A stretch of DNA of 64,000 bases from an uncultured Bacilli bacterium (GCA_910588025.1 CAJUQG010000003.1:8114-72113), one strand, 5' to 3'. Shown: positions 5,231-60,794, numbered from the stretch's first letter. Made by a program: numbers and translations. The notes: generated from the sequence alone by a model not told the origin.

Positions 5231-5247
5231 ACTTTCGAGGTATTTTT

Positions 5248-6769: not shown

Positions 6770-6820
6770 AAAACTGCTCCTACAAGTAAGATTATATCAA
6801 GAATTAAAGTAGAAAAAAAG

Positions 6821-27736: not shown

Positions 27737-30700
27737 TTAAATTTTCATTTTACTTTTTTTATAATATAGATATCCAATACCAACTAGTGAAAGGATGGAA
27801 ATGATTCCATAACTAGCTACAGAAGAAATACCCGTTTGAGGATTCTTTATTTTTCGAATTGTCATCTCATGAGTTAATTTCATACCATTTACTTCGATAG
27901 TAAACGTAACTTTTCCAGGATTTATTCCTGTAATGATTCCAGATTCATCAATCGTAGCAATGGATTCATCACTTGATGAATAAGTATAAATTAAATCATC
28001 TGTAACATCGGTTGGATTTAAAGTAACATTTAATTTTGTTGTATCTCCAACATTTAATTCATTCACTGGATTTTCTAACGAAATACTTTCTAAATGAACT
28101 TCTGTTACATTTACTTCTACACTTTTTTCAAGGTCTTTATAAGTTGCAGTAATGGTTACAGTTCCTTCTTTTTTACCTGTTACGATACCAAATTCATTTA
28201 CTATAGCTATTTCTTCATCGCTACTTGTCCATTTAATTTGGTCTTTTTCAGTTGTATTTTCCGGTGTTACTAATACTTCTAATTGTTTTTCTTCTTTTCT
28301 TTTTATTTCTAATTTATCAGTTGCAAATTCCATATCTGTAATAGGAATGATTTCTACTTCTACTGTTACAGTTACTTTCATACCGTTTGATAATGATCCT
28401 GTAATCACTGATAATCCAGCATTTTTAGCTGTTACAATACCAGAATCATTTACAGTTGCAACTGATTCATTATTACTTGTCCAAGTAATTGTTTGATCTG
28501 TCGCGTTTTCTGGATTAATTTTTGTTACTATAGTAGATGTTGTACCTTTTAATACTTTGATGTTATCTTTAGAAACTAAATGAAAGCTTGTTACTGGAAT
28601 GACAACTTTTACAGTTATTTTGTCTTCTTTGGCACCAGATTTTGCTGTAATGATTGCTGTACCAGCATTTTTAGCAGTAATCATACCTAGATTATTGACA
28701 CTGACAATATTATTATCACTACTTGACCAGTTTAATGTATCTGAGTTATCACTTGGTTCTACTTTAGCTGTTAAATTATTTGTTGTATTGATATTCATTG
28801 TAATTTCTTTTTGGCTATTAATTGTAACCCTAGTGGTAGGAATGGTTACCGTAACATTTAATGAAGCAGTTAACCCATTTGAAGTTGTTGCTGTAATGGT
28901 TGCAGTACCTTTTCCAACTGATTTTACAACGCCGTTATTGTTTATTGTTGCAACACTGTTATCACTACTTGTCCAAGTAATGGTTTTATCACTAGAGGTT
29001 ATATTAGGTGTTAATTTTACTTCTAATTTTTCTTCTTGTCCTTTTCCTTCTAATGTTAGTGAATCTTTATTTAATTCTATTTTAGTAATTGGATCAATGA
29101 CTGTAATTGTAGAAGTTACAGTTTCTTTGTGTTGAGGGTTCATGTTACTAGTCCAAGTTGCCGTAATAATTGCAGTACTTGCAGAACCATCATTTGGTGA
29201 AATTGCTGTTACTTTTCCAAATTGATCAACAGTAGCTACAGAAGGATTACTACTTGTCCAAGTAATCAATCCAGTTTCTTCTGCACCAGTAGTTGGTGTA
29301 GCAATTAAATCAATTGTTTCTCCCTTTTTTAAAGTTTGATTTGGAATATTGATATTTAAGCCTTCTACTTCTTTTAGTACTTTAATTTTTCTTGTTTTTG
29401 TAATACTTCCACTTTGAATTGTTAGTGTAGTTTCTCCAGCATTTTTAGCAGTAATTAGTCCACTATTATCAACGGTTGCAATTGTGTTATCTAAAACACT
29501 CCAAGTGATAGTTTTATCATTTGCATTTGCTGGGATGACACTAGCTATTACTTTTTGTGTTTGATTTGGAAGTAATGTAATCGTATCTGTAATATCAATA
29601 GAAATATCTGTAACAGGAACATTTACGTTTACTTTAACAGAATCAGAATGATTACCTACCGTTAACGTAATCGTTGCTTCTCCACCATCTATCGCTGTTA
29701 CTTTTCCAAATTGATCAACAGTAGCTACAGAGGTATTACTACTGGTCCATTTTAATGTATCTGTAGTATCTGATGGTGTTACAACTCCAGTTAGTGTTTT
29801 TGTAGTATTTTTATCTATTGTAAAATCGGTTTCATTAATGGTAACACTTGTTGCAGGTGAAGTAACATTAAGTACTACACTATCTGTAAATTTTTCTGAT
29901 GTCTCATTGGAAGTTGCAGTTACACTAATAGTTATAGTCCCATTTTTTAAGATGCTTACTACCCCATTATTATTTACAGTAGCTACAGAGGTATTACTAC
30001 TTGTCCAAGTATAATTAATCGTATCACTTGTTGTACTTGGAGTTGTCTTAGTTGTAAGAGTAATTGGACCACTTAATGTATTTTTGTTTATTTCTAGTGT
30101 ATTATTTGTAATTTCGTTATTACTAATATTTACACCACGCAAGTGTTCTTTTACGTTTACTACTACTTCAAATTCTTTTTGGAAAGCAGTTACTTTGATT
30201 TTAGCAGTACCAATTTTTAAACCAGTTACTACGCCATTTTCTACTTTTACTACATCGAGTCCGTCAGTTATTTGATAAGTGAAATTTTTATCATCGGTTG
30301 TATCTTTTGGTGAATAATCAACTACAATATTATCATTTTTATTAGAGCTTCCTAAATCAATTTCTAGTGTTGGTGTTGTTAAATTAATACTACTTTCAAT
30401 CACAGGAACTCTTATAAATACACTTTCATTCACACCATTTACGGTTACTGGTGTAAGCGTTTGTCCGCCATCTGTTATTTTATTTGCTTCAATGTTTGTT
30501 AAAGTAATATCTGTTTTACCAGAAGCAGTTTCTAGTACTTCAAAAGTAATATCTCCAATATCTAAACTAGTATTGGTTGGAGCACCCATATACATGATTG
30601 ACCAAACTAAAAGTCCGTTTCCTTCATCCATTACATTTTCACTTGGGCTTGGATTTTTTGTTGTTGGATTGTAACTTATTAATTTTAATTTTGTAGGGTC

Positions 30701-30967
30701 ATAATTGATGAAGAAAGAAAGTGAATTAAATTCTTTATCGTTTTCAAAATCTAAGTGGTACGTTACTGTTTTTTTACTACCACTTTCACTACGATCAATG
30801 ATGGCATCTTGACCATTTTGAGCAGCGATAACTGGATTTGTTACACTTACTTTCAGGGTTGGAGTTGCATCTGCTACTGCATAGGCAATGACAGATACAA
30901 AACAGATTACACTAATGATTAAACCAGTCCACTTTTGTTTTAATTTCCATTTTCTTTTTTTTGTCAT
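27737..30967 (-). CDS. cell-wall-anchored surface protein: N-terminal cohesin-like module, ~9 Big_2 (Ig-like) repeats, C-terminal NPQTG sortase-B-type sorting signal
   Basis: Signal peptide; residues ~40-190 contain LSFFINYDPTKLKLISY, similar to the cohesin V-YDP--L signature. Repeated TWTSSN-SVATV...G-ATITA Big_2 units. C-terminus NPQTG + hydrophobic stretch + KKSKMKI tail. ATG at 30967 with AGAGGTG RBS. Confidence 0.75.
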   Translation of the reverse strand: MTKKRKWKLKQKWTGLIISVICFVSVIAYAVADATPTLKVSVTNPVIAAQNGQDAIIDRSESGSKKTVTYHLDFENDKEFNSLSFFINYDPTKLKLISYNPTTKNPSPSENVMDEGNGLLVWSIMYMGAPTNTSLDIGDITFEVLETASGKTDITLTNIEANKITDGGQTLTPVTVNGVNESVFIRVPVIESSINLTTPTLEIDLGSSNKNDNIVVDYSPKDTTDDKNFTYQITDGLDVVKVENGVVTGLKIGTAKIKVTAFQKEFEVVVNVKEHLRGVNISNNEITNNTLEINKNTLSGPITLTTKTTPSTTSDTINYTWTSSNTSVATVNNNGVVSILKNGTITISVTATSNETSEKFTDSVVLNVTSPATSVTINETDFTIDKNTTKTLTGVVTPSDTTDTLKWTSSNTSVATVDQFGKVTAIDGGEATITLTVGNHSDSVKVNVNVPVTDISIDITDTITLLPNQTQKVIASVIPANANDKTITWSVLDNTIATVDNSGLITAKNAGETTLTIQSGSITKTRKIKVLKEVEGLNINIPNQTLKKGETIDLIATPTTGAEETGLITWTSSNPSVATVDQFGKVTAISPNDGSASTAIITATWTSNMNPQHKETVTSTITVIDPITKIELNKDSLTLEGKGQEEKLEVKLTPNITSSDKTITWTSSDNSVATINNNGVVKSVGKGTATITATTSNGLTASLNVTVTIPTTRVTINSQKEITMNINTTNNLTAKVEPSDNSDTLNWSSSDNNIVSVNNLGMITAKNAGTAIITAKSGAKEDKITVKVVIPVTSFHLVSKDNIKVLKGTTSTIVTKINPENATDQTITWTSNNESVATVNDSGIVTAKNAGLSVITGSLSNGMKVTVTVEVEIIPITDMEFATDKLEIKRKEEKQLEVLVTPENTTEKDQIKWTSSDEEIAIVNEFGIVTGKKEGTVTITATYKDLEKSVEVNVTEVHLESISLENPVNELNVGDTTKLNVTLNPTDVTDDLIYTYSSSDESIATIDESGIITGINPGKVTFTIEVNGMKLTHEMTIRKIKNPQTGISSVASYGIISILSLVGIGYLYYKKSKMKI

Positions 30968-31042
30968 AGTAAACACCTCTATTATTAAGTTTATTTTATC
31001 ATTTTCTTTGATTAATTACTATCTATTTTCTTCTATTTTACA

Positions 31043-31930
31043 CTATTCACTTTTTAAGCCAAGACTTCTTCTTAAGATATAGTACACATCTCCAGCATCA
31101 ATACGATTGTTGTTATTGATATCTCCTCGGATTAACTCTTCAGCAGTTGGTTTATTTAATCCAAGACTCATTCTAAGAGCAAGATAATGATCCAACGGAT
31201 TTATTTTACCATCACCATTAATATCTCCTTTTAAATAATCAAGAACTGTTACTTTGGTTTGTAATGTTTTCATACCATAACTTGCAGTAACGTTTGTTTC
31301 ACCACTTTGATTGGCTTTTATTTTTCCATTACTATCTATACTTACTAATGTATTATTTTTAGAAGTAAAGGTGACTTTATTTGGAGAAATGATTAGTCCA
31401 TTTGGAACATACATTTCTAATTGATAAGTTTCTCCTACACTTAGTTTTAAATCACTTGCATTTAATTTTAATTCATCATAATTTACAATATTTATTTCCT
31501 TTTCTAAATTATTAGGAGATAAAGGTGTCGAATCTGCAAATGATAATTTGGGATTTTCTAATTTTAAATTAGCACTACAAGTATTTTCTTTTGCTTTTAA
31601 AGTAACTTTTAACATAGTAAAATCTTCTTTTGTTCCCATTAAATTACTGTAAGCAAATTTTTTACTTTTTTCATAATATGTAGCGAATGGATTTTGTATC
31701 TCCACTTTAACTACATCAAAACAAGTTTCATCACTTACGGAAATGATTCCACCTGCAGATATTAATTCAGATCCCTGAATACTACTAAATATAAGATTTT
31801 GAGTGAATTCTTCTGTTATTTCAAATAATTCATTTCCTTCCCATGCTATATTGGCGGAAGAACTTGCGTATACACACATGGGTATTGCTAAGAGCAATAA
31901 AAAGGAGATGAAAATATGATTTTTCTTCAT
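31043..31930 (-). CDS. secreted dockerin-bearing protein (beta-sandwich module + Big_2-like + type-I-like dockerin)
   Basis: Signal peptide; C-terminus GDINGDGKINPLDHYLALRMSLGL...RGDINNNNRIDAGDVYYILRRSLGL fits the duplicated calcium-binding dockerin repeat. N-terminal domain is homologous to the N-terminus of the next gene. Confidence 0.75.
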   Translation of the reverse strand: MKKNHIFISFLLLLAIPMCVYASSSANIAWEGNELFEITEEFTQNLIFSSIQGSELISAGGIISVSDETCFDVVKVEIQNPFATYYEKSKKFAYSNLMGTKEDFTMLKVTLKAKENTCSANLKLENPKLSFADSTPLSPNNLEKEINIVNYDELKLNASDLKLSVGETYQLEMYVPNGLIISPNKVTFTSKNNTLVSIDSNGKIKANQSGETNVTASYGMKTLQTKVTVLDYLKGDINGDGKINPLDHYLALRMSLGLNKPTAEELIRGDINNNNRIDAGDVYYILRRSLGLKSE

Positions 31931-31948
31931 ACAAACTCTCCTTTCTAA

Positions 31949-34312
31949 TTATTCATGATAGCGATTTGATCTTGATTTTCTTGCTTCTTCTTTTCTTAAA
32001 GCTTCTTTTTCGCGATTTAATCGTTCTTGTTCATATAATAGTTTTAATTTTTTAGAATCTTTGGTTTCAATTGCTTCATTAATAGCATCAAAGATTTCAT
32101 CTTTTGTGACAATTTCATCATATGGATCATATGGAATTTCTTCATATTTTGCTTCTTTTGTATTTTCTTTGTCTTCTTTAAATTTCGTTTCTAATTCTTT
32201 TTCTGGATAACCAGTGTATTGATTTAATACTCCTCCAGCTTCTACAACATCATCATCTGTTCCATTTTTAGATCCAAAATTAAATTCAGGTTTAAATTCA
32301 ATTACTGGCGATGAAGGTGACGCTCCATGAGCATCTACTACTGGAATTTTTGGAGTTTCTTCTTCTTTTCTTTTCTTTAGTAATAAAATTAGAATAAAGG
32401 TTAATATTCCAATTAATAATAATGATCCAAAAAGTAATAACCATTGTCCAAGAGTAAGTCCTAAAAAGGTACTCTTTCCTTCTTTTGTAACATTTAAACG
32501 GTAGTATTGAACGAATCCATTTTCATCTGTTACTTTAATTAAAATAGCATTGTTTCCTTCTCTTAAATTTTCATTTCCTATAATTTCTACTTGGGAATTT
32601 TCAAATTCAGGAATAGCAGTAATATCAAGTTTATTTACTTTTCCTGTTACAGAAACTTCATATTCATATTTATTTGATTCAAATCTTGGAGATATTTCTC
32701 CGTTTGTAATAATTAAATCTTTTAATTTATTTTGATTTACTTTTTCACTACGATTTACATTAATTGTATAAACTCTTAAAGAGCCATCTTCTGCTCTTAC
32801 CTCAATAGTAACTACATTCATTCCAATTTTAAAATTGTCATTTCCTATAATACTAACAGAGGCATTTTTATCTTCAGCAAATAATTTTAAATCTAGTGAT
32901 TCAACATCATTTGGTACTGTGATATTATAACTATTATTATTTTTATCAAATCCTGGTTTTAATTCTCCATCATTTACCATAATACTTTCTAAGTAATTAT
33001 TAGCAGATTTTGAAGGAGCGTTTGTATTAGATGCTGATTTACGATTTACATTAACAATATAAACTTTTTCAGAACCATCTTCTGCTGTAACTGTAATACG
33101 TACAGTATTTACTCCTTCTTTCCAACCATTGTTACCACTTATTTTTACAGTAGCTTTTTCATCGTTTGGAAGAGCTGTTACATTTAAACCAGTAATGTTA
33201 TTATTTACACTAATATTATAAGATGTTACATCTTTGTTAAAAGTTGGAATTAAAGTAAATCCTGAAACATCTAAGCTTTTTAGAGTTGCATCACTATTTT
33301 TAGCTGGAACATCTGGTTGTTCATCTCTTTTTGTTACTGCTACTTCATATGTTTTTGTTGTTCCATCTTCTGCTTTTACAATGATACTACAAGTTGTTGT
33401 TTTATCAGTAAGATTACATGTTTCGCCACTTACAATCGATGCTTTATCATGATTTGGAATGGCATCAAATTTTACACTAGTCGCATTAGAAGCTGTTTCC
33501 ATTGTGTAACTTGTTGTATTTGGAGTAAAGGATGGTGATAAAGTATTACCAGTAGATGTTAAAGATTTTAGGGTTGCATCATTGCTTTTTCCTGGAACAA
33601 CTGGATCTGGATCTTTTTTTGTAACTACTACTTTGTAAGTTTTTGTTGTTCCGTCTTCTGCTTTTACGGTAATATTACAAGTTGTTACTTTAGAAGATAA
33701 ATTACATGTTCTACCACTTGTTACACTTGCTTTTGGATCTGTTACTGAAGTATTAAAGGTGATACTTCCTGTATTAGCTGGAATACTATCAATAGTATAA
33801 TTAGTAGTTCCAGCGTTAAAGGCTGGTGAAAGTGTACCTACACTTGGTGATAATGATTTTAAAGTTGCATCACTACCAGCTGCTCTTACTGTGATTGTTT
33901 TTGAGAATGTTGCTGGAGATAATCCTGTATCATCTGCGAATGCTAATTTTGGTTTTGTAATATTGATTGTAGCTGTACAAGGAGAGGATCCAGCTGTAAA
34001 TTTAACAGTTGTAAGTTGCGTGTCATTTCTTGTACCATTTAAATCAGTCCATGCAAATTTTCTAGAACCAGTATAACTTAGACAAGTATTATCTGAAGAT
34101 GATATTTCCCCACCTACAGAAATGATTTCTGATCCTTGAATACCAGTTGCCCAAATAGTCATTGTTAATTCTTGTCCAACGAGAACTGTATCATTACCAC
34201 GCCATTCAAATCTTGCAGTAGTACCATCTGCAGCAAAAGATTGTGGTAATCCTGCTGCTATTAATAAGCTTATAGCAATGGATAAGATTCCTATTCTTAA
34301 TTTTCGTTTCAT
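31949..34312 (-). CDS. type-I membrane surface protein with cadherin-like beta-sandwich repeats and a ~170-aa charged cytoplasmic tail
   Basis: Signal peptide, N-terminal domain paralogous to 31043..31930, at least 5 repeats of (N/S)DATLKSL...LSP-F-P-TT-Y...V-AEDG-T-KTY (cadherin-like PF12733 type). Single TM (LLLFGSLLLIGILTFILILLL) then K/E-rich tail. ATG 34312 with GGAGGA RBS. Confidence 0.75.
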   Translation of the reverse strand: MKRKLRIGILSIAISLLIAAGLPQSFAADGTTARFEWRGNDTVLVGQELTMTIWATGIQGSEIISVGGEISSSDNTCLSYTGSRKFAWTDLNGTRNDTQLTTVKFTAGSSPCTATINITKPKLAFADDTGLSPATFSKTITVRAAGSDATLKSLSPSVGTLSPAFNAGTTNYTIDSIPANTGSITFNTSVTDPKASVTSGRTCNLSSKVTTCNITVKAEDGTTKTYKVVVTKKDPDPVVPGKSNDATLKSLTSTGNTLSPSFTPNTTSYTMETASNATSVKFDAIPNHDKASIVSGETCNLTDKTTTCSIIVKAEDGTTKTYEVAVTKRDEQPDVPAKNSDATLKSLDVSGFTLIPTFNKDVTSYNISVNNNITGLNVTALPNDEKATVKISGNNGWKEGVNTVRITVTAEDGSEKVYIVNVNRKSASNTNAPSKSANNYLESIMVNDGELKPGFDKNNNSYNITVPNDVESLDLKLFAEDKNASVSIIGNDNFKIGMNVVTIEVRAEDGSLRVYTINVNRSEKVNQNKLKDLIITNGEISPRFESNKYEYEVSVTGKVNKLDITAIPEFENSQVEIIGNENLREGNNAILIKVTDENGFVQYYRLNVTKEGKSTFLGLTLGQWLLLFGSLLLIGILTFILILLLKKRKEEETPKIPVVDAHGASPSSPVIEFKPEFNFGSKNGTDDDVVEAGGVLNQYTGYPEKELETKFKEDKENTKEAKYEEIPYDPYDEIVTKDEIFDAINEAIETKDSKKLKLLYEQERLNREKEALRKEEARKSRSNRYHE

Positions 34313-34335
34313 TTTAAATCCTCCAAACAATATTT

Positions 34336-34350
34336 ATAGAGCATATGCTC
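34336..34350. promoter_or_regulatory. palindrome GGAGCATATGCTCT between the -10 (TTGTATAAT) and the RBS of gene 31949..34312
   Basis: Perfect 12-14 bp inverted repeat in the 5' leader, 25 nt upstream of the start codon. Operator or leader hairpin candidate. Confidence 0.3.
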
Positions 34351-34469
34351 CTTATTATTAAATTTATTATACAACTTTTATAACATTACTGTCTACAAAA
34401 TTCGACATTATTCTGCAAAATAAAAATGGGATGTTATTTCTTTTTAGTCCTTCAAATTTGGGAATAAAC

Positions 34470-34500
34470 TAATAGAAAAAAATGCAGACTTATTTTAGTC
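34470..34500 (-). terminator. Rho-independent terminator after the 34511..41806 gene
   Basis: Minus strand tgtagactaaaataagtctgca hairpin (8-bp stem, 1 mismatch) followed by TTTTTTT, 11-40 nt after the stop. Confidence 0.5.
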
Positions 34501-34510
34501 TACATTTAAT

Positions 34511-41806: not shown

Positions 41807-41881
41807 AATATACACTCCTATATCATATTCACCCTATTGTTGTCATTATAACATATTTATTTTTATTATTCTATTTATTTT

Positions 41882-50002: not shown

Positions 50003-50023
50003 AACAATCACTACTATCTCTAC

Positions 50024-50061
50024 TATATAAAAGTATAACACCTTTTGTCGTATTTTGTCAT
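50024..50061 (-). promoter_or_regulatory. sigma-A-type promoter (ATGACA, 17 nt spacer, TGtTATACT) of the 41882..50002 gene; copy conserved upstream of the paralogue
   Basis: RC of 50056..50061 is ATGACA; RC of 50032..50038 is TTATACT with upstream TG; 17-nt spacer. The same ~50-bp element recurs at 59441..59475. Places the TSS upstream of ATG 50002 but inside the ORF-track GTG extension. Confidence 0.5.
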
Positions 50062-50077
50062 TTAAAATATCATTAAA

Positions 50078-50109
50078 ACGAAAAGAAAAAAAGCAAGTTA
50101 TTTCCTTGC
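50078..50109 (-). terminator. Rho-independent terminator after the 50110..59394 gene
   Basis: Minus strand agcaaggaaataacttgct hairpin followed by TTTTTTT immediately 3' of the stop. Confidence 0.5.
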
Positions 50110-53100: not shown

Positions 53101-56100
53101 AATGGTAATATCTTCTATATCATGTTCTACTGTCAGTTCATAATTTAGAATAGTTGGATTAAAGGTAGGTGTTAGTTCTCCTCTATTGGTATCAAGAGAA
53201 CTAAGAGTTAAATCTTCATTCGTATTCTCTTGTTTTATGATATGAGTCGTATAAATTTTAACATTACCATTTTGAGCAGTAACCACGATATCAATATCTT
53301 TTGTATCATTTGGATTTAAACTACTTACATCAATGGTAAATTTGTAAGTGTCAATATTATTACTATCAGTAACATCTACAAAAGCATAAGGACTTTCTGG
53401 AATTGCTGTCATGTGTAATATATTGGTATTAAACGGAACTTTTACTTCATAATAGATGGTTGTTTCATTGAAAATCGGAGATAATCCCCCTTCTTCAATA
53501 TATAAGAAATCTAAGTCATCGTTATCTGATTTATCTCTTACTACTTTAATTACATAGTCTTTTGCTGAACCATCTTCAGCTGTAACTCGTAGTGTTATTT
53601 TATTTTCTTCCCCAGGAATTAAGTTATAGGTTCCATTTCCAATGACGTTTGAGGTGTTCGATTTTGGTGTCCCTGTAATATCAATACTACTAATTTCATA
53701 TTGAACGTTTATTAAGTAATCATAATCTTTGGTAGGGTCTATATTTTCTATTACAACACTACCTCGATTGTTGGTAATAGATTCTAATTCAGTATTATCA
53801 TCAAGTCTTTTATTTACTTTGATGGTATAAACTCTATCTACTCCATCTTCACTAGTAACAGTTAGGGTAATTATATTTTCACCTTTTACTAAGGCATACG
53901 TTCCATTTCCCTTAATGTTTGAAGCATTATCTTCTTTGATTCCTTTTAAAGTAATTTCATTTACAGATCCATCTACATCAATGGTATATGATAGATTTTC
54001 TTTATTAAATTCTTCATTTAGTGTGCCACCTGTTACTTCAATATTTTGAAGATAATTATTCGTACTTGATTCTTTTAAGACAACAATTTGATAAACCTGG
54101 TAAGTTTTATCTTCTGCAATACTAGTTATAACAATAATATTTGATTTTTCTGTTAGATTATTATTTCCTCTTATTGTATAAGTAGTGGTATTTTCTTCTG
54201 GTGTTACCTTAACATTTAATTTATCTACATTTTTAGGAATTGTCACAGTATAATTTTTGATGTCTTTGGAAAATTCAGGACTTATTTCATAGCCTTCAAT
54301 TTCAATATTTAATAAAGAACTATTATTATTACGAGATTTCATAATCACTATTTCATAAATGTTAGTATCTCCAGATTCACTTGTAACTGTAATTGGGAAG
54401 CTATTTTTACCACTCACTAGTTCAAAAACACCTGTTCCTGTTACTGATCCTGCTTCTGAAGCGGCATTAATCGTTATTTTTTTGGTAGTTGCATCTACAA
54501 CAGCAGTATAGTCATTTAAAAGTTTATTAAATGTTGGCGTAAGTTCTACTTTTTCTTGATTTTCTTTTATAACTTCTAAATTACTTAAGAAGGTATTAGT
54601 ACTTTGCTCTTTGTAAGTATATAAAATATAAGTTTTTTGATTTTTATTTGGAGCTGTGACTAAAATACGAATTTCATTTAATCCAGTCATTAAATTTTCA
54701 TTTCCAGAAATAGTAACTGTTGCATCTGGATTTTCGGGAATTGCTTCTAATTCTATTTGGGCAAATTCTGCAGGAATCGTAATATAGTACTCATAAGTAG
54801 ATGGGTTAAATGTTATTTCTGTTTTTTCATTTTGAGGATTGGTAACATTTAAAATGGCAAGATTATTGTTACCTGAATCGTCTTTTCTTATTTTATAAGT
54901 ATATGTAGTAGTATGAAGTCCATCTTCACTTGTTATATCAATTTCAATGATATTGATACCACTATGAATTTCAAAAGTATCACTTGTTTGTTCTATACGA
55001 TTTTCTTCTTCATTTTCTGGTTCATTACGGTAATATTTTATTGTTTGATAATCACTTTTTAAGGTAGGTGTTAAAGATATTTTTTCTGTCAGAAATGGAA
55101 GTAAGATTTCATAACTAGTAATGTCACTATCAAATGTATAGTTACAGTAAGAAGGACTTAAACCACATAAATAAGCTACAGGATTTTTTAAGACGATATC
55201 TTTCGCTTTACTATCATCAGATGGTTCGCGATTTATTTTTAAGGTGTAGGTTTTATTTGCTCCATCTTTTGTAGAAACAACAATTTTATGTTCATTTAAT
55301 CCTGGGTGTAATGTAATATCACCATTTCCTAAAATGCTTGCTTCTTGGGATTTTGGAATTGCTAATATGTCGATTGAATTGTATTCTTTTGGTAAATCGA
55401 TTTCATAAGTATAAGTCCATGGTTCAAAAGGAATGGTTACATTTCCATGATCTATTATAATGTTATCTAAGAAGGTATCTCCGACAATACCTGGAGTGGC
55501 TGTAATTTTAGCATATCCATTTCCACGGTTTCCATCCATTAAATTGGTTCCATCGTAGTTTGGCATTTTTTGATTACCAGAAATCATTTCTGTATCATTT
55601 AAATAATATTTTTGATCTACTGAATAACCGTTTGGAACGTTGTTTTTAGAATTAGATGTCCAGATAAAGCCTGAACCTCCTCCAGCACCATGCCATCCAG
55701 AGCCACGAGAATTATATCCGCCATACCAGCCCCCTCCTGCTCCTGGTCCGCCATATCTTGCACTGATGTAACTAATGGTAGAAGCACTTGCATTAAATCC
55801 TCCACCAAATGACCAACCTGCGGTTTGGGTTCCGGGTGCACCATAAGAAGTTGAATAAGAGTATCCAGATAATCCTCCTCCATCTCCTCCACGTTCACCG
55901 TCCATTCCGCCGCCACCACCACCGCCAGCGACAATAAGACGTGATAAAAGAGATGATTGGTCATTCCAAGGACCACTTACAAGACGAATATCGGTAGACC
56001 CTCCACCACTTGCAGCAGGATCATTACTAGTGTTGATGGCTTTGTAACCGGACCCGCCACCATTAAAGCTTGGGGCTGTTGTACATATTTTTCCACCACA

Positions 56101-59100
56101 CCAAGTACCTTCTTTTCCAACATAAATATAGAGAGTATCTCCCTTATTTAAATAAACAGAACCTTTGGCGTATCCTCCAAGTCCACCTATACCTAGTTCA
56201 CTATTTTGATGATGTCCTCCACCACTTGCACCCCATACTTCTAACGTATAAAGTGCTGGAGATGGTGCAATAAATGTTTGGTAATCACCTGTATATGTAA
56301 ATCCTTCGTTTACAGGGTCCAATATAGGCTCTATTCGTTTTAGATTTAAAGTATAAACCGTACTACTAACTCCATCTAGATCAACAGTTATAGTAATTTG
56401 TTTTTCTTTTTCTGAAACATATCGATTTTCTACAATTGTTACTTTGGCATCTTCAAAAAATGGTGTTGCAATCATTGGAACTTCTCTTGTAAAGTTTAAA
56501 ATTTCTAGAGTGTAATCTTTTTTAATAGGTGAAAAAGCACTTGTTAATACACCACCATCAATTTCTAAACTTTTTAATAGACTAGCTCTTTTTCTTTTAA
56601 AGGTAAAAGTATATGGTTGATTTTGTAAATCCCCTTCACTTGAAACTACAATATTAATTACTAATTCATTTTCTGTAAATTCATAAATTGTATTTTCTGG
56701 TATTTTTTGTCCTGGATATAATTTTAATAGTTCTAAATTAATTTTTGTTATTTCTGTTGGTAATTCCATTTCGTAATCAAACTTAGTTGGGTCAAAATTC
56801 ACATAAAGTAGACCATTTACTTTAAAGCCTTTTAACTGAGCACTAGCACTTGCTGGTCTTGTTACATGTATTGTATAAATGGAAATTTCGCCATTTAAAT
56901 TTGTAAATGTAATGGTAAAGTCTTGGTCTCCTGCTGGAACATTAAATGTACCTAGACCTGTTATTAATGCTTCTTGTTTTTTGGTTGTAGCATCAAAAGT
57001 AATCGTAGTATCTCCAACATTTAAAGAAAGATCATAATCAAATGTACCTTCATGAAATTCTGGAGTTAACACGCCTTTATCTACTGTTATTTCTAATAGT
57101 TCATCTAAATCATCTGTGGAATAATAAGAAATTTTAGCGTATCCTGCGGCATTATTTCCTAGCATGACACTACTGCCATCATAAGTTGGCATATATTGAT
57201 TTCCTGCTAAGGTTTCGGTCTCTTTTAAATAATATTTGTTTGTTGCTATGTATCCGTCTGGAACATTTTTAGAAGAAGATTCATTTAAAACAAATCCTGA
57301 TCCTCCTCCAGCACTATGGAATCCTCTTCCCAAAGAGTTTTTTCCACCATACCAGCCGCCACCGCCACCAGAGCCACCATATTGGGAACTGATGTATCCG
57401 ATGGTACTTGCATTAGCGTTAAAGCCTCCACCAAAAGACCAACCTGAGTTTTGCGTTCCGGGTGCACCATAAGAGGTAGAATAAGAGTATCCAGATAAGC
57501 CTCCGCCATCTCCTCCACGTTCGCCATCCATACCAGATCCACCACCACCGCCTGCAACGATGATACGTGATAGAAGTGAGGTTTCATTGTCCCAAGGACC
57601 AGGAACAAGCCGAATATCGGTAGCCCCTCCACCACTGGCAACAGGGTCTCTAGTTGAATTCATAGTTTTGTAACCGGTTCCTCCACCATTAAAGCTTGGA
57701 GATGATATACAAATAGAATTGCCACACCAAGAACCTTCTGCTCCGACATAAATATACAATTTATCTCCAGCATTTAAATATAGCTTTCCTTTGGAATATC
57801 CTCCTAGTCCAGCTATTCCTAATTCTGAATTTTGGTGAGATCCACCACTTCTTGCTCCCCATACTTCTAAGGTATAGTAAGTGGAGTATGGAGCAACAAA
57901 TTCTTGATAATCTCCAGTATAATTAAATGTTGTTTCTAGTGGTTTACTATTTACCGTTTGTTCAAATTCTCTATTAATATTAAACTTATAAGTTGTATTC
58001 TCACAATTTGGTTTACTTACATTAATTGTGACTATATTTTTTCCTACACTTAGATCATTTGAGGATATGGTGTAAGTTGTTTCTTCATCAGTTTCAATCA
58101 GTGGATTAAATTTAGTTGTAGTATGATTTACTGTAATATCGTATTCATAAACATTACTTTCAAACGAAGTAAAATTTTCAAATGTTAGATTATTTAATTT
58201 AGCTTTAGCAATTACTGGATAAATATTGTAGATAAAGATATTCCCTTCTAAATCCATTAATATTACTTGATGAATTTTATCTTTTTCTAAAGTTGTTTCT
58301 CCTACATTGTGCGCCCACATAAATTTTGTTTCATCATAGGTTATAGTAGTTTTATAAGGAGATGCTGGTAAAACTGTTTCATAATTTAGAGTGTTATTTT
58401 CAAAAAAAGGAGTTAGTTCTAAATCAGTTAAAGATATCGGTGGTTTTTCTCCATCTAAAGGAGAAGTTTTTTCTAATAAGGTTATTTTGGCATATCCATC
58501 GGCTTTATTTCCAATCATAGTACTTTTTCCATCATGAGTTGGCATGGATGCATTTCCGGCTATTGTCTTGGCATCCGTTAAAAAATACTGCTCACTAACA
58601 TGATAACCTTTTGGGACATTTAAAACAGACTCTGGAGTCCATATAAAACCAGAACCTCCACCAGATCCTTCCCATTTGCTAGGACCAGCTGAGTAATATC
58701 CGCCATACCAGCCACCGCCTCCACCATTTCCACCATAAGTAGAATTAATGTAAGAAAGGGTATTTACATTGGCGCTAAATCCTTCTCCAAATTTCCAGCC
58801 AGTGGTTTGGGTTCCACCATAACCAGATTCCGCGTTAACAAGAATTCCTTCTAAACCGCCACCGTGGCCACCAGGTTCGCCATTATCTACACCGCCGCCA
58901 CCGCCACCGCCTGCAACGATGATACGCGATAAGAGAGAAGATGAGTCATTCCACTCTCCTTTTGTAAAACGAATGTCTGTAGCTCCTCCACCACTCGCAA
59001 CAGGATTCCAAGTATCACTAGCAGCAGTTCGTTTCCAGCCAGAGCCGCCACCATTGAACCCTCCAGGAACGGTACAATATCCACCTTGGCAAAACGTACC

Positions 59101-59394
59101 TTTTCCACCGACATAGACATATAATTTCTCACTTGTTTTTAATTGGATTACTCCTGTCGAGTAACCACCTTTACCACTTGGTCCTAGATTGCTTTGTTGA
59201 TGGTCTCCTCCACCTTCTGCTCCCCAAACTTCTAATTTATATTTTCCTTGAACAGGAGCAATAAATTCTTGTGAGTCACCTGTATATGAAAAAACAAATT
59301 CTTCATTAATTTCTACCGCTTTAATTTCTAGTGGAAAAAAAAGAAAGAAAAAAAGAAAAATAAAAAAACTTTTTTGATATTTATTGATACTCAT
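50110..59394 (-). CDS. giant (~3094 aa) secreted protein: 3 ALK/LTK-type glycine-rich domains, >20 cadherin-like repeats, Big_2, C-terminal dockerin-like pair (paralogue of 41882..50002)
   Basis: Signal peptide (MSINKYQKSFFIFLFFFLFFPLEIKA). Three Gly-rich domains starting with YTGD(S/Y)QEF-AP...LEVWGA-GGG and containing SGGGATDIR(F/L)...W(N/D)(D/N)-SSLLSR(I/L)IVAGGGGG. C-terminal ~205 aa identical to the 41882 paralogue. ATG 59394 (59409 is non-ATG). Confidence 0.8.
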   Translation of the reverse strand: MSINKYQKSFFIFLFFFLFFPLEIKAVEINEEFVFSYTGDSQEFIAPVQGKYKLEVWGAEGGGDHQQSNLGPSGKGGYSTGVIQLKTSEKLYVYVGGKGTFCQGGYCTVPGGFNGGGSGWKRTAASDTWNPVASGGGATDIRFTKGEWNDSSSLLSRIIVAGGGGGGGVDNGEPGGHGGGLEGILVNAESGYGGTQTTGWKFGEGFSANVNTLSYINSTYGGNGGGGGWYGGYYSAGPSKWEGSGGGSGFIWTPESVLNVPKGYHVSEQYFLTDAKTIAGNASMPTHDGKSTMIGNKADGYAKITLLEKTSPLDGEKPPISLTDLELTPFFENNTLNYETVLPASPYKTTITYDETKFMWAHNVGETTLEKDKIHQVILMDLEGNIFIYNIYPVIAKAKLNNLTFENFTSFESNVYEYDITVNHTTTKFNPLIETDEETTYTISSNDLSVGKNIVTINVSKPNCENTTYKFNINREFEQTVNSKPLETTFNYTGDYQEFVAPYSTYYTLEVWGARSGGSHQNSELGIAGLGGYSKGKLYLNAGDKLYIYVGAEGSWCGNSICISSPSFNGGGTGYKTMNSTRDPVASGGGATDIRLVPGPWDNETSLLSRIIVAGGGGGSGMDGERGGDGGGLSGYSYSTSYGAPGTQNSGWSFGGGFNANASTIGYISSQYGGSGGGGGWYGGKNSLGRGFHSAGGGSGFVLNESSSKNVPDGYIATNKYYLKETETLAGNQYMPTYDGSSVMLGNNAAGYAKISYYSTDDLDELLEITVDKGVLTPEFHEGTFDYDLSLNVGDTTITFDATTKKQEALITGLGTFNVPAGDQDFTITFTNLNGEISIYTIHVTRPASASAQLKGFKVNGLLYVNFDPTKFDYEMELPTEITKINLELLKLYPGQKIPENTIYEFTENELVINIVVSSEGDLQNQPYTFTFKRKRASLLKSLEIDGGVLTSAFSPIKKDYTLEILNFTREVPMIATPFFEDAKVTIVENRYVSEKEKQITITVDLDGVSSTVYTLNLKRIEPILDPVNEGFTYTGDYQTFIAPSPALYTLEVWGASGGGHHQNSELGIGGLGGYAKGSVYLNKGDTLYIYVGKEGTWCGGKICTTAPSFNGGGSGYKAINTSNDPAASGGGSTDIRLVSGPWNDQSSLLSRLIVAGGGGGGGMDGERGGDGGGLSGYSYSTSYGAPGTQTAGWSFGGGFNASASTISYISARYGGPGAGGGWYGGYNSRGSGWHGAGGGSGFIWTSNSKNNVPNGYSVDQKYYLNDTEMISGNQKMPNYDGTNLMDGNRGNGYAKITATPGIVGDTFLDNIIIDHGNVTIPFEPWTYTYEIDLPKEYNSIDILAIPKSQEASILGNGDITLHPGLNEHKIVVSTKDGANKTYTLKINREPSDDSKAKDIVLKNPVAYLCGLSPSYCNYTFDSDITSYEILLPFLTEKISLTPTLKSDYQTIKYYRNEPENEEENRIEQTSDTFEIHSGINIIEIDITSEDGLHTTTYTYKIRKDDSGNNNLAILNVTNPQNEKTEITFNPSTYEYYITIPAEFAQIELEAIPENPDATVTISGNENLMTGLNEIRILVTAPNKNQKTYILYTYKEQSTNTFLSNLEVIKENQEKVELTPTFNKLLNDYTAVVDATTKKITINAASEAGSVTGTGVFELVSGKNSFPITVTSESGDTNIYEIVIMKSRNNNSSLLNIEIEGYEISPEFSKDIKNYTVTIPKNVDKLNVKVTPEENTTTYTIRGNNNLTEKSNIIVITSIAEDKTYQVYQIVVLKESSTNNYLQNIEVTGGTLNEEFNKENLSYTIDVDGSVNEITLKGIKEDNASNIKGNGTYALVKGENIITLTVTSEDGVDRVYTIKVNKRLDDNTELESITNNRGSVVIENIDPTKDYDYLINVQYEISSIDITGTPKSNTSNVIGNGTYNLIPGEENKITLRVTAEDGSAKDYVIKVVRDKSDNDDLDFLYIEEGGLSPIFNETTIYYEVKVPFNTNILHMTAIPESPYAFVDVTDSNNIDTYKFTIDVSSLNPNDTKDIDIVVTAQNGNVKIYTTHIIKQENTNEDLTLSSLDTNRGELTPTFNPTILNYELTVEHDIEDITITASAFDESATIKGLGTYPLKVGKNSIPIFVVGNSQIQKDYQIVITRKKSSDASLTNLVVKNHVLSPSFSKDVTEYHLTTSKTNLEFTMINPTETDATYEIIGNQNFQTGENTVTIKVTAPDGETTKEYKIIVEKTGSKNNNLASLEVVEYNLTPTFHKGVTFYATEVNNDVNSVVISATSEDANATITGTGLKKIETGENYFEIVVTSETGDKKVYTVLITKEASDNNYLASLNTNEGTLNPIFQKETTDYTINVTHEIESISLNGKAEDVNATITGFGNYNLNEGENNITILVTSESGLVRSYNIKIIRESIISAFLKELSVTNFALDTEFNKEILEYFITVPNDTEQLNITAIAEDKNASVEITGQDSLEIGMNEIHIKVTASDSTTTLEYIIYVNKEMSTNNYLSSLIPSIGNLDPIFNPTVMDYTIEVPRETQNITINATTQDASSKIISGVGVHELNIGSNIISIKVKSAIGITRTYKVNVIRTPANNNYLKNLKVMHILENIPLNPEFQKETNEYSLTVPSDLNFIQIKAEAESEFATVTNTGTKELVTGLNRFEIEVKAEDGTINTYILNITKEVSSNNYLSSLIPSTGVLSPEFNKELLEYNLDLSYEISDLSFNATLESNLASVKGLENKIVPEGLSVREITVTAEDGSVRVYKININKETASEVRLKELAIIDYPITFDSNTFTYTIEVPHSKDILYQNEITAIPMDPNATVNLMGDLNLYAGASTEYIIEVIARDGYTTQEYKIIVKRAKFDLESITPSETSILLDVGELKQITYTFTPEITSFTEVKWTSDDETIASVDEFGNITGVGYGTTTIHVISNYDENIKASIEVKVIRKKITSSVYQIERKEKEDGSKLEYTYGSEPGILLKDYLNNFENETTTLYVYDKEGNEVDKETIIASTFMKIKLIVEDVCYDELIIVVKGDLTGDGYITGPDRVRLQRYMQMKVELEEIEMIAADVTNDKEVTGPDRVKLQRYMQMKIDSVN

Positions 59395-59440
59395 AATAAC
59401 ACTTCCCAATATTTATTAACCAGACTATTCTACTATAAAT

Positions 59441-59475
59441 AGAGTATAACACTTTTTGTCGACTTTTGTCATTTT
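59441..59475 (-). promoter_or_regulatory. sigma-A-type promoter of the 50110..59394 gene (paralogous copy)
   Basis: RC of 59467..59472 is ATGACA; RC of 59443..59449 is TTATACT; 17-nt spacer; flanking sequence about 85% identical to 50020..50065. Confidence 0.5.
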
Positions 59476-59576
59476 AATTTGCTCAGTATGGGAAGATTTT
59501 TCAAAGAACGCAAAAAAAATACCCACTTTCGTAAGTATTTTTGATATTTACCCATTTTAAGATCAAGAACTAAAAA

Positions 59577-60035
59577 TTATTTTTCTTCAAAACCACATTC
59601 TAAAACGATTTCCATACGATAGTCTTTTTTACCAAAAGGCTCTTGTGGATAAATGATTACTTTACTATTTTGTTTATGGCATTCTTCCTTCGTTTTTGAG
59701 TTTACAAAGGCGTCAAGTTTTTCTTTATTTTCTTCTGTTTTATATCTTGATAAACCATCTAAATTAATTTTAATTCCTAAATCAGTATAGTTTTTTAAAA
59801 ATTTTGCTCTCTCTTCATCATTTTTACCAATTTGTTCATAGTACAAATCTTCATAGAAAGATACGCCCATTTCTTTCATATATTTTTTTAAGGTAGCTTC
59901 TTCATTGTTATTTTGTAATAATAAAACAATTAATAAAATGATGGCGATTATTATAATGAAACCTACACCAAATAAAAGACTCTTTTTCTTATCTTTCTTT
60001 AATATTTCTATCCATGATTTTACTTTTTCTTTCAT
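59577..60035 (-). CDS. hypothetical membrane-anchored protein
   Basis: 152 aa, N-terminal TM (LLFGVGFIIIIAIILLIVLLL) then a soluble domain with no recognisable motifs. Confidence 0.55.
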   Translation of the reverse strand: MKEKVKSWIEILKKDKKKSLLFGVGFIIIIAIILLIVLLLQNNNEEATLKKYMKEMGVSFYEDLYYEQIGKNDEERAKFLKNYTDLGIKINLDGLSRYKTEENKEKLDAFVNSKTKEECHKQNSKVIIYPQEPFGKKDYRMEIVLECGFEEK

Positions 60036-60086
60036 CCTAAATACTCCTTCTTTTCACAACTTATTATATCATAAAAATAATTTATG

Positions 60087-60794
60087 TCATCCCATTTTTC
60101 CAGCATGAATAATGACTCTTTTGGTTTCATCATAATAGCATGTGGAAAGGGTTAATGTTTGTTTTAAATTTTCTCTTTTTTGAAATAGCGAATGATTTGA
60201 TTCAAAATAGGCTTGGTGCTTGTCTAGTGGGGTTTCATCTGATTCGTCGGTAATATAAGCAGCATAGACAAGATATTCCATTGTAGATGCTTCGGTATGA
60301 ATTATGATTTTTATATCATTACCCAGTTTTCCTTCTTGAATTTTAATTAATTCTCCAAATATAGTATCTTTATAAGTATTGTGCCCAAATAAAATGGTAT
60401 TATTGTCACTAAAATCAGAGCTGTTTTGGTAATTCATGAATACAGAACCATAAATATTGTATTTTCTTAATAGATCATGATTTAAGTAAAACGAATTGTC
60501 TTGTCCTTTGACGATAGCATAATTAATATTGGTCTTGGGAATCTCAATCCAACCAACGACATCAGGATTCATGGCTTTTAATTTTGAAAAATCGATTTGT
60601 TGTTTTGTTTCTCCTTCAATTACATCCGTTTGAATTACTTGATTTATAATCATTTCTTGAACTTTGCTAGCTTCTTTTTCATAATATATTTTTTGACCAA
60701 TTGGAATCATTGAGAAACCAAATAAAAGAACTAGAACAAAGATACTACCATTTATGATCAATTTTTTATATTTTGTTTTTAATTTTCGTTTCAT
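60087..60794 (-). CDS. srtB: class B sortase
   Basis: Signal anchor, DVVGWIEIPKTNINYAIVKG, GSVFMNYQN, NNTILFGHN (His), TLTLSTCYYDETKRVIIHAGK (TLxTC Cys and Arg); closely parallels S. aureus SrtB motifs. ATG at 60794 (60803 is GTG). Confidence 0.85.
   Translation of the reverse strand: MKRKLKTKYKKLIINGSIFVLVLLFGFSMIPIGQKIYYEKEASKVQEMIINQVIQTDVIEGETKQQIDFSKLKAMNPDVVGWIEIPKTNINYAIVKGQDNSFYLNHDLLRKYNIYGSVFMNYQNSSDFSDNNTILFGHNTYKDTIFGELIKIQEGKLGNDIKIIIHTEASTMEYLVYAAYITDESDETPLDKHQAYFESNHSLFQKRENLKQTLTLSTCYYDETKRVIIHAGKMG

Follow-up and report, generated by a model that had tools for sequence, protein, structure and literature searches.

How a gut bacterium might hold on its surface giant proteins that end in dockerins, and which cohesins would hold them, is the question raised by a gene cluster of an uncultured mouse-gut bacterium. 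The window (the whole stretch of DNA that was analyzed, 64,000 nucleotides) contains eight genes of this locus, all on the minus strand, each of which encodes a secreted or membrane protein. A first-pass annotation, whose gene coordinates were all correct, had proposed a single cohesin scaffold that is anchored by a class B sortase and displays four dockerin-tagged proteins. We consider it probable that the locus encodes an enzyme-free, cellulosome-like surface assembly, in which three single-cohesin proteins hold four dockerin proteins by predicted Ca-dependent binding. The plug-and-socket modules of cellulose complexes have apparently been reused here for hanging giant, enzyme-free, adhesin-like surface fibers.

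All four proteins annotated as ending in dockerins scored above the Dockerin_1 (PF00404) gathering score of 22.9 bits, with 31.8 bits for 31043-31930, 34.4 for 34511-41806, 28.2 for 41882-50002 and 28.0 for 50110-59394. Two Ca-binding loops of the form D-x-[NDT]-x-[DN]-x3-[DNT]-x2-D, with a helix after every loop, are present in each of the four proteins (DLTGDGYITGPD / DVTNDKEVTGPD in the 3094-aa protein). A six-frame regular-expression scan of the 64 kb found exactly four such paired motifs, all located at these four C-termini and with a spacing of 34 residues. Each dockerin consists of near-identical duplicated halves, as read from the sequences, and threonine occupies loop positions 3 and 9 in the dockerin of the giants; the AF2 confidence for the dockerin part was low (pLDDT about 50). 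None of the four dockerin proteins contains a transmembrane (TM) helix or a sorting signal. By sequence the four dockerins represent three types, those of the 2706-aa and 3094-aa proteins being identical, and the types differ strongly at the helix positions that normally contact the cohesin. The 3' 440 nt of 41882..50002 are 100% identical to 50110-50550, and both giants with glycine-rich domains would therefore require the same partner. This division into three sequence types was overlooked in the first-pass annotation.

The cargo had been described as arrays of Ig-like/cadherin-like repeats and ALK-type glycine-rich domains, which Pfam searches and repeat mapping bore out, the glycine-rich domains forming heads. 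The 3094-aa secreted giant (50110..59394, minus strand) comprises three ALK/LTK-type glycine-rich domains (approximately 58435-59307, 57058-57969 and 55429-56334; ALK_LTK_GRD, 433.9 bits in three stretches), about 21 cadherin-like repeats (414.7 bits), Big_2 (35.6 bits), a module of ~100 aa without family and the dockerin (50137-50304; 28.0 bits). The 2706-aa secreted giant (41882..50002, minus strand) has two glycine-rich domains (approximately 49022-49885 and 47378-48301), 21 cadherin-like repeats, Big_2 and, likewise, a module without family before its dockerin (41909-42076). In the 2431-aa secreted giant (34511..41806, minus strand), a 254-aa N-module (41045-41731) is followed by 20 cadherin-like repeats (356.6 bits), a module of ~85 aa and a dockerin of the second type (34553-34717; 34.4 bits). 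Repeat mapping left over only this N-module and the pre-dockerin modules of ~85-100 aa, which are not assigned to a family.

One cohesin lies in the 1076-aa wall-anchored stalk (27737..30967, minus strand), which consists of a signal peptide, a cohesin (30398-30862), ten Big_2 domains (311.8 bits in ten stretches, Pfam) and an NPQTG signal. The cohesin is absent from the whole-protein Pfam listing and was matched only as an isolated module: residues about 36-190, scanned alone, gave 38.8 bits against PF00963 (E 1.3e-9, model positions 7-132 of 139), above the gathering score of 24.1 bits, and the cohesin-like N-terminal module first proposed for this protein is thereby upheld. A profile of the stalk cohesin and its relatives found solved cohesins only among PDB sequences (3l8q, E 1.8e-5; 5nrk; 4ums). 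Is this cohesin the sole receptor, for which the four dockerin proteins compete while the other heads serve a different role? Its module alone passes Pfam Cohesin, the stalk is the only wall-anchored protein, and the 34-residue loop spacing is common to all four dockerins. We nevertheless regard such a single receptor as quite unlikely, since the dockerin types differ so strongly at the positions normally touching the cohesin, and since two more modules share the cohesin fold and homology.

These two modules head the adaptor and a membrane anchor. The 295-aa secreted adaptor-like protein (31043..31930, minus strand) combines a divergent cohesin head (31487-31861) with Big_2 and a dockerin of the third type (31052-31231). 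After its signal peptide, the 787-aa type-I membrane protein (31949..34312, minus strand) has a divergent cohesin head (33878-34225), five to six cadherin-like repeats (129.9 bits, Pfam), a TM helix (32378-32467) and a 142-aa cytoplasmic tail (31952-32377) that is 84-85% conserved across species; both a dockerin and a sorting motif are missing. Pfam Cohesin gave no match in either head even at E<=10, and a profile of the head family (A4) matched no PDB sequence. The two heads are 37% identical to each other, and A4 aligned with A5, the Pfam-positive cohesin heads of orthologues, at 97.1% in hhalign (E 5.5e-11). Both heads thus combine the nine-stranded jelly-roll fold of cohesins with profile-level homology to accepted cohesins. 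The gene 31949-34312, as well as the cohesin heads of the 31043-31930 and 31949-34312 products, had been overlooked at first reading. The locus contains three cohesin proteins with one cohesin each, of which one is sortase-anchored, one membrane-anchored and one a soluble adaptor that also bears a dockerin. With three dockerin sequence types beside them, one receptor for all dockerin proteins is too simple a scheme; the cohesin/dockerin/sortase surface locus with giant cargo is supported, and the single cohesin displaying all four proteins is not.

Syntenic relatives of the locus provided indications of which dockerin meets which cohesin. In lineages A, B, D and E the adaptor dockerin (89-100%) and the stalk cohesin (87-99%) are conserved together; in lineage C the adaptor dockerin is down to 52% and the stalk cohesin to 47%, with the remainder of the stalk at 67%. 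The remaining two cohesins are 31-36% identical among the lineages of this comparison, and conservation of the stalk cohesin is tracked by the adaptor dockerin only, which again speaks against a sole receptor. So does the gene order of a giant with dockerin followed by a TM-anchored cohesin protein, which is kept in L017, L022, L024, L026, L027 and L030; the contigs of some relatives with this order show no stalk gene. L027 and L030 are 53% identical in the giant's dockerin and 51% in the anchor's cohesin, in comparison to 83% for the rest of the giant and 90% for the anchor tail; between lineages A and C the values are 83-85% for the giant dockerin and 82-86% for the membrane-anchor cohesin. 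These comparisons, which cover few lineages and effectively one to two independent divergence events per pair, suggest that the sortase-anchored stalk cohesin is the partner of the adaptor dockerin and not of the giants, and that the dockerin of the 2431-aa protein pairs with the membrane-anchored 787-aa cohesin. The adaptor cohesin is assigned to both giants with glycine-rich domains by elimination only.

Close relatives share 31-36% identity in the hypervariable heads of the 295-aa and 787-aa proteins, and about 50% in the DNA of these heads as opposed to 97-100% next door. The adaptor and membrane-anchor cohesin heads are swapped as cassettes among close relatives. Such hypervariability would also be expected of exposed tips contacted by ligands or phages, and the cohesin-fold heads could then be the ligand-binding tips of three adhesins, with the dockerins as Ca-stabilized C-terminal modules for another partner, either a wall polymer or, through self-association, themselves; cohesins and dockerins of the locus would then not be wired to each other. 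Many non-cellulosomal dockerins are indeed without obvious cohesin partners, according to a passage in PMC9012536 that cites Peer et al. 2009. We judge this explanation unlikely: cohesin modules and dockerin types are equal in number, dockerins and cohesins co-diverge in two independent comparisons, and the four dockerin proteins, having neither TM helix nor sorting signal, would be released if nothing anchored them.

For the wall-anchored member of the proposed assembly, attachment by a sortase is predicted from its C-terminus. The sorting signal of the stalk (27740-27844), the only one within the 64-kb window and annotated as such from the beginning, carries the pentapeptide NPQTG (27830-27844) 35 residues from the C-terminus, followed by 23 hydrophobic residues and then KKSKMKI; together with its N-terminal signal peptide, the 1076-aa protein has the tripartite signal of a sortase substrate. 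Class-B-type sorting signals are conserved in its relatives, those of the same architecture having NPQTG, SPQTG, APQTG or HPKTG. To our knowledge, no class B sortase has been demonstrated to use NPQTG as a substrate. Motifs known for class B sortases are NPQTN and (S/P)PXTG, and C. difficile SrtB cleaves neither NPQTN nor NVQTG (PMC4155245).

The 235-aa, class-B-like sortase of the locus (60087..60794, minus strand) has an N-terminal membrane anchor, and the catalytic His, Cys (TLxTC) and Arg could be read in its sequence as LFGHN, TLSTC and R-V-I-I-H. It scored 63.9 bits against Pfam Sortase. The product is named 'class B sortase' by the sources, and class B is by far its best class: 128.5 bits against TIGR03064 (srtB, NCBIfam), under the equivalog cutoff of 153.75, in comparison to 37.7 for class D and 19.6 for class E. 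All 15 PDB matches (E 2e-19 to 1e-15) are class B sortases or homologues, from C. difficile, C. perfringens, S. aureus, B. anthracis, S. pyogenes and L. monocytogenes. The class assignment made at first reading is hence supported by best class and structural matches, at a score short of the equivalog level. The gene of a 152-aa single-pass membrane protein (59577..60035, minus strand) separates the sortase gene from that of the first giant; this protein had no significant match in Pfam or NCBIfam, and its L027 counterpart, a 201-aa protein (4032-4634) in the equivalent place, resembles it at the C-terminus when read by eye.

Could these proteins be structural components of a genuine polysaccharide-degrading complex (cellulosome or amylosome type), with the dockerin enzymes encoded elsewhere and the cadherin-like repeats acting as carbohydrate-binding modules? 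The Pfam description of PF12733 presumably suggests carbohydrate binding, which would favor this explanation. Ruminococcal cellulosomes and the R. bromii amylosome also typically include sortase-anchored and adaptor scaffoldins (PMC4611034, PMC4081043). We nonetheless hold such a complex to be very unlikely. Neither the eight locus products nor the rest of the window contained GH, CE, PL, CBM or other CAZy-type families, in agreement with the missing glycoside hydrolases and carbohydrate-binding modules noted at the outset, and the window has neither the dockerin-bearing CAZymes nor the multi-cohesin, CBM-bearing scaffoldin that define cellulosomes and amylosomes. Each of the three anchors is single-cohesin, so that none would be able to collect several enzymes. 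Loci related to this one are present in other gut metagenomes, and their cargo is of adhesin type too (DUF285 leucine-rich-type and Listeria-Bacteroides repeats).

In the enzyme-free assembly that we favor, the sortase would attach the 1076-aa stalk of Big_2 domains to peptidoglycan, and the stalk cohesin would thereby stand away from the wall and bind the dockerin of the 295-aa adaptor, whose own cohesin would in turn bind the identical dockerins of the 2706-aa and 3094-aa giants. The 787-aa membrane-anchored cohesin would bind the dockerin of the 2431-aa giant, whose gene lies immediately upstream; the cadherin-like stalk of the 787-aa protein would be long enough for crossing the wall, and its conserved cytoplasmic tail may couple attachment to the cell interior. 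Held by dockerin-cohesin binding, the giants would use a dockerin in place of the LPXTG anchor of ordinary fibrillar adhesins. From the domain composition alone, the locus likely functions in adhesion or aggregation in the gut, involving the host, food particles or other microbes.

The closest precedent is found in R. flavefaciens, where ScaE, a sortase-anchored single cohesin, holds the non-enzymatic adhesion protein CttA via an X-dockerin (PMC4266597), as it also does ScaB, and where a single gene cluster encodes all components (PMC4266597, PMC5301203). Both systems have a covalently wall-anchored single-cohesin protein with a C-terminal sortase motif, cargo with a C-terminal dockerin and a common cluster, and here a module without family just before the giants' dockerin occupies the position of the X-module. 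The logic of the locus is consequently not unprecedented. Non-cellulosomal cohesin and dockerin modules are, moreover, described as widespread in the part of PMC9012536 referring to Peer et al. 2009, and the initial remark that such an architecture was not known to have been described went too far. The assembly principle was already known; what appears to be new is the enzyme-free, giant, adhesin-like cargo.

Other known systems are less similar. In C. perfringens glycosidases and toxins (2vo8, 2jh2, 2w1n, 2o4e), non-cellulosomal cohesin-dockerin modules connect secreted enzymes with one another, whereas here they reside on dedicated anchors and enzyme-free giants, with an identity of only 17-18%. 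A. cellulolyticus ScaB, whose cohesins are matched by the stalk cohesin profile (3l8q, E 1.8e-5), and R. bromii Sca are likewise built in tiers, the cargo being connected to an anchored cohesin through a protein that has both a cohesin and a dockerin. Unlike these cellulosome and amylosome scaffoldins, the locus has no SLH domains and no enzymes, and with one cohesin per protein it forms no multivalent scaffoldin. Gram-positive fibrillar adhesins (tip, repeat stalk, LPXTG anchor) resemble the giants in their tip-plus-stalk layout and the 1076-aa protein in its stalk and sorting signal. However, the giants end in a dockerin and not in a covalent anchor, which splits tip and anchor over separate, exchangeable polypeptides; in a literature text search, 'fibrillar adhesin' and 'dockerin' occurred together in a single general review. 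The non-cellulosomal modules of A. fulgidus (2xdh) and ANME archaea belong to another domain of life, with S-layer-based anchoring and cargo such as substrate-binding proteins.

The wiring would change if the 254-aa N-terminal module of the 2431-aa giant were also a cohesin. It had no Pfam match, its single-sequence AF2 model reached a pLDDT of 37, and the L026 orthologue scored 15.3 bits against Cohesin, below the cutoff. Its profile (A6) aligned in hhalign with the cohesin profile A2 at a probability of 67% (E 5e-5) and with A5 at 0.2%, and the module is possibly a fourth, insert-bearing cohesin. Directly after the gene of the 2431-aa protein lies a terminator-like hairpin (34480-34507, minus strand; 11-pair stem and T run), and behind it comes the region's best promoter-like site (34366-34395, minus strand; 11 of 12 consensus matches), both calls being consensus matches only, in a region whose count of promoter-like sites is not above that of shuffled sequences. 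Together (34366..34507), hairpin and promoter-like site suggest that the three cohesin genes may be transcribed as a unit of their own.

Across positions 27737–60794, every long open reading frame lies on the minus strand and the gaps between genes are short. In transcription order, the cluster begins with the sortase gene (60087–60794), followed by the genes of a 152-aa membrane protein (59577–60035) and of three giant proteins of 3094 aa (50110–59394), 2706 aa (41882–50002) and 2431 aa (34511–41806). The last three genes encode a 787-aa protein that was missing from the list of the first-pass annotation (31949–34312), a 295-aa protein (31043–31930) and a 1076-aa protein (27737–30967), hereafter called membrane anchor, adaptor and stalk, respectively. 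An in-frame read-through of 30340–31249 is interrupted by three stop codons. A terminator-like hairpin lies between the 2431-aa and 787-aa genes, accompanied by a strong promoter-like site, and the three cohesin genes might thus form a transcription unit of their own; we take the operon split as a hint because promoter-like sites are no more frequent in this region than in shuffled sequences.

The cluster is flanked by lon/tig and ileS, the chromosome has a G+C content of ~31%, and a plasmid search with the ileS gene as query gave no match. The exact locus proteins are recorded from mouse-gut MAGs, and a genome scan with alignment A1 matched a single species representative, MGBC162267. From reading the sequence, we take the window also to encode a PASTA-domain kinase and a DD-carboxypeptidase-like protein, which fits an organism having a cell wall.

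Duplicated calcium-binding repeats of dockerin type had been claimed for four C-termini. Dockerin_1 scored above the Pfam gathering threshold in all four named proteins, the adaptor and the three giants (28.0–34.4 bits versus 22.9), and a six-frame scan recovered exactly four paired calcium-binding loops from the 64 kb, located without exception at these C-termini and each with a spacing of 34 residues. The four dockerins belong to three clearly distinct sequence types with near-identical duplicated halves in each: one in the adaptor, one in the 2431-aa giant, and one common to the 2706-aa and 3094-aa giants, which also carry glycine-rich domains. For the latter pair, the last 440 nt of the genes (41882–42322 and 50110–50550) are 100% identical in DNA. 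Beyond this stretch identity falls to 96, 92 and 81% and down to background within ~300 nt, and the two genes have unrelated DNA 3' of their stop codons. The pattern suggests recent gene conversion, which would hold the dockerin and pre-dockerin module of both giants alike. A Pfam scan of the pre-dockerin modules (85–100 aa) was empty.

The N-terminal module of the stalk, read from a sequence signature as cohesin-like, proved in a scan of the module by itself to match Pfam Cohesin (38.8 bits, E 1.3e-9), and a profile built from this module and four relatives matched solved cohesins only. However, Cohesin was not listed when the whole protein was scanned, nor was it for the relatives P0117, P0118, P0120 and P0122. 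HMMER filters possibly drop the family in such long, Big_2-rich proteins. Automatic annotation thus misses the stalk cohesin, and sources therefore call stalk-type proteins just Ig-domain or YjdB-like. An exhaustive profile search of 1.84 billion representatives yielded 19 relatives of the stalk cohesin, four of which share the architecture of N-terminal cohesin, Big_2 domains and SrtB-type signal. In the stalk itself, ten Big_2 domains are followed by a terminal segment made up of NPQTG, a hydrophobic stretch and KKSK; the sorting signal proposed for this protein is thus present, and it is the sole one in the window. Related stalk proteins carry NPQTG, SPQTG, APQTG or HPKTG. The motifs NPQTN and (S/P)PXTG have been described as class B signals (PMC4155245). 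For the proposed class B sortase, class B is by far the best class and all solved relatives are SrtB enzymes, but its score lies under the NCBIfam class B equivalog cutoff.

The adaptor and the membrane anchor share an N-terminal module with 37% identity, which no Pfam model matches in either protein. In an AlphaFold2 model of the adaptor computed with four homologues, this module reached a pLDDT of ~90. In more distant metagenome loci, the proteins in the place of the membrane anchor have heads that pass Pfam Cohesin (28.6–34.1 bits), and a profile of the window-type heads aligned to these Pfam-positive heads over the full length (97.1% probability, E 5.5e-11). A direct comparison of alignment A1 with the cohesin alignment A2 left the two cohesin types unconnected; the link runs via alignment A5 of the Pfam-positive heads, Pfam and the fold. 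The heads of the 295-aa and 787-aa proteins are two further cohesins. Hence, the 295-aa protein is built like an adaptor scaffoldin from cohesin, Big_2 and dockerin, and the 787-aa protein is a membrane-anchored cohesin with 5–6 cadherin-like repeats, a TM helix and a 142-aa cytoplasmic tail. With the two extra cohesins, the locus holds three cohesin modules and three dockerin types. The 254-aa N-terminal module of the 2431-aa giant may be a fourth cohesin: comparisons with the A1, A2 and A5 profiles gave weak matches at best (hhalign probability of 67% against A2), and its AlphaFold2 single-sequence model was of low confidence (pLDDT 37).

The cytoplasmic tail of the membrane anchor (31952–32377) is 84–85% conserved across species and has no family match. 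Its motif ..EEIPYDPYD..VTKDEIFDAINEAIETKDSKKLKLLYEQERLNREKEAL.. is still recognisable in L022–L030, loci with 38–60% overall identity.

Regarding the cargo, domain scans and a repeat map agree with the Ig-like/cadherin-like arrays and ALK-type glycine-rich domains described in the first pass. Each giant contains 20–21 cadherin-like repeats. In the two largest, the N-terminal end is formed by ALK/LTK-type glycine-rich domains, two in the 2706-aa and three in the 3094-aa protein, and a Big_2 domain is placed ahead of the dockerin. We know of no function for ALK/LTK-type glycine-rich domains in bacteria. The only stretches of the giants that lack a family match are the 254-aa N-terminal module and the 85–100-aa modules before the dockerins. 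As had been stated, no glycoside hydrolase or CBM family was detected in the giants or the other products of the cluster. In the related locus L027 the cargo is again adhesin-like, with DUF285 and Listeria-Bacteroides repeats combined with a dockerin. Neighbouring genes in L030 (6101–11812) and L027 (1–3945 and 14418–19610) encode large surface proteins with Listeria-Bacteroides and DUF285 repeats, the one in L030 having a C-terminal tyrosine-phosphatase-family domain (Y_phosphatase3, 74.9 bits).

The partners of the three dockerin types were addressed by comparing the window, lineage A, with syntenic loci of four more lineages, designated B (L007), C (L017), D (L019) and E (L021). Among A, B, D and E, the adaptor dockerin is 89–100% identical while the remainder of the adaptor shows 31–70%, and the stalk cohesin is the best-conserved part of the stalk (87–99% versus ~75%). 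In lineage C both drop, the adaptor dockerin to 52% and the stalk cohesin to 47%, with the remainder of the stalk at 67%. The other two cohesins occur as two types, A and C versus B, D and E, with 31–36% identity across types. Between A and D, the DNA of the adaptor cohesin is ~50% identical, and identity rises back to 97–100% from the dockerin on. Since adaptor dockerin and stalk cohesin are conserved or drop together, a pattern that neither of the other two cohesins shows, the adaptor dockerin most likely plugs into the sortase-anchored stalk cohesin, as judged from few independent events.

A giant cadherin-repeat/dockerin gene lies directly upstream of a membrane-anchored cohesin in L017, L022, L024, L026, L027 and L030. 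Between L027 and L030, the giant dockerin (53%) and the anchor cohesin (51%) have diverged in step, the giant remainder staying at 83% and the anchor tail at 90%; between A and C, the corresponding values are 83–85% for the dockerin and 82–86% for the cohesin. This suggests, again from few independent events, that the dockerin of the 2431-aa giant pairs with the membrane-anchored cohesin. For the dockerin of the two glycine-rich-domain giants, elimination leaves the adaptor cohesin as the predicted partner. We hold this specific wiring of the three pairs, read from sequence comparison, to be tentative and somewhat short of probable. A mirror-tree over seven loci was discarded as additional support for the pairing: the Spearman coefficient was 0.53 for dockerin versus cohesin and 0.69 for dockerin versus anchor tail, and it says no more than the L027/L030 contrast.

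As further observations on the heads, that of the adaptor (31487–31861) is a mosaic cassette in comparison to L019, L021 and L007. Compared at the DNA level with the close relative L019, the head is ~50% identical, Big_2 65–82%, the dockerin 99% and the following gene 97–100%. For the membrane anchor, the head type changes between these same lineages (A and C versus B and E). In the more distant locus L022, a Big_2 protein with sortase-type anchoring (5172–7112; five Big_2 domains, HPKTG signal) carries a head that by eye is of adaptor/membrane-anchor rather than stalk type, with no separate adaptor gene between it and the membrane anchor, so that the tiers seem rearranged between lineages.

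In the proposed assembly, the sortase would cut the Big_2 stalk at NPQT/G and join it to peptidoglycan, the adaptor would dock on the stalk and hold the two glycine-rich-domain giants, and the third giant (2431 aa) would be held by the membrane anchor. Together with these proposed steps, the adhesin-like cargo of the related locus leads us to regard the locus as encoding an apparatus that lacks enzymes and displays adhesive fibres. The earlier idea of a SrtB-anchored cohesin scaffold was broadly right as surface assembly but too simple, given three cohesins and three dockerin types. The general mechanism, cohesin–dockerin surface assembly of adhesin-like fibres, we consider reasonably probable.

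The feature at 27737–60794 is real, but the claim that such an architecture had not been described was overstated. In R. flavefaciens, ScaE/CttA combines a sortase-anchored single cohesin with a non-enzymatic adhesion protein bearing an X-dockerin (PMC4266597, PMC5301203), so that the same logic is already established there. Adaptor scaffoldins, sortase-anchored scaffoldins and amylosomes are known as well (PMC4081043, PMC4611034), as are non-cellulosomal cohesin–dockerin pairs in archaea (PMC9012536) and, from PDB entries, in C. perfringens. A 2026 study showed that many ruminococcal cohesins are revealed by structure alone, and it noted Ig-like, LRR and mucin-binding domains in scaffoldins (PMC13463774). 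In comparison to these systems, the present cluster is entirely without enzymes and CBMs, its anchors are all monovalent, and it uses a class-B-type sorting signal and sortase. It also differs in a membrane-anchored cohesin whose cytoplasmic tail is conserved, in giant cadherin-like and glycine-rich-domain proteins as cargo, and in cohesin heads that switch as cassettes. The literature covered by our text searches contained no description of an enzyme-free cohesin–dockerin system of this kind. What is new is the use of cohesin–dockerin surface assembly for adhesin-like fibres, the principle itself being known.

A more far-reaching reading, which we regard as unlikely, is a modular, re-wirable adhesion apparatus. 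Three orthogonal pairs would define two attachment lines, one covalently wall-linked via SrtB and the adaptor and one membrane-anchored; cohesin heads and, by prediction, matching dockerins would be swapped as cassettes between strains, changing the displayed fibres, and the conserved anchor tail would report fibre load or occupancy inward. If true, the re-wirable apparatus would be an enzyme-free 'adhesosome' rather than a cellulosome, forming a family in several uncultured gut Bacilli. 

Under the main reading of the locus as a display apparatus, the cohesin–dockerin principle would widen from the organisation of enzymes to the anchoring of giant adhesin-like fibres. Classical Gram-positive adhesins use a covalent LPXTG anchor, for which a non-covalent, exchangeable plug would stand in here. 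Orthogonal cohesin–dockerin sets are wanted for synthetic protein assembly, and one organism would offer three apparently orthogonal, compact predicted pairs. Head switching in near-identical backgrounds provides a testable case of how partner specificity evolves. The position of the ALK/LTK-type domains at the tip of the displayed fibres suggests a binding role, and the locus gives a handle on the possible attachment of an uncultured low-G+C mouse-gut bacterium and its gut-metagenome relatives to host, food or other cells.

Several smaller genes accompany the cluster. The 152-aa protein beside the sortase (59577–60035) has no Pfam match; a 201-aa counterpart lies in L027 (4032–4634) between two dockerin-protein genes, and both share a C-terminal Cys-containing motif (..VIIYP.EP[FY]GK.DY..). 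This small membrane protein may be a conserved accessory component. Downstream of the stalk gene, a 731-aa ORF (24492–26687, minus strand) without any family match combines a lipoprotein-like N-terminus with 5–6 tandem copies of PPVEELPTEPSETE, a long region rich in Cys and His, and ATPSNA repeats. This ORF is kept at the same place within the species (L001–L006), and toxin–antitoxin genes take its place in L007 (RelB/YafQ) and L017 (ToxN). A 288-aa ORF on the plus strand (26831–27697), convergent with the stalk gene and matched by neither Pfam nor NCBIfam, corresponds in position to a 288-aa gene of L017; near the N-terminus of the window ORF is a glycine-rich loop, IGEGSEGIVY, which by eye recalls kinase-like folds.
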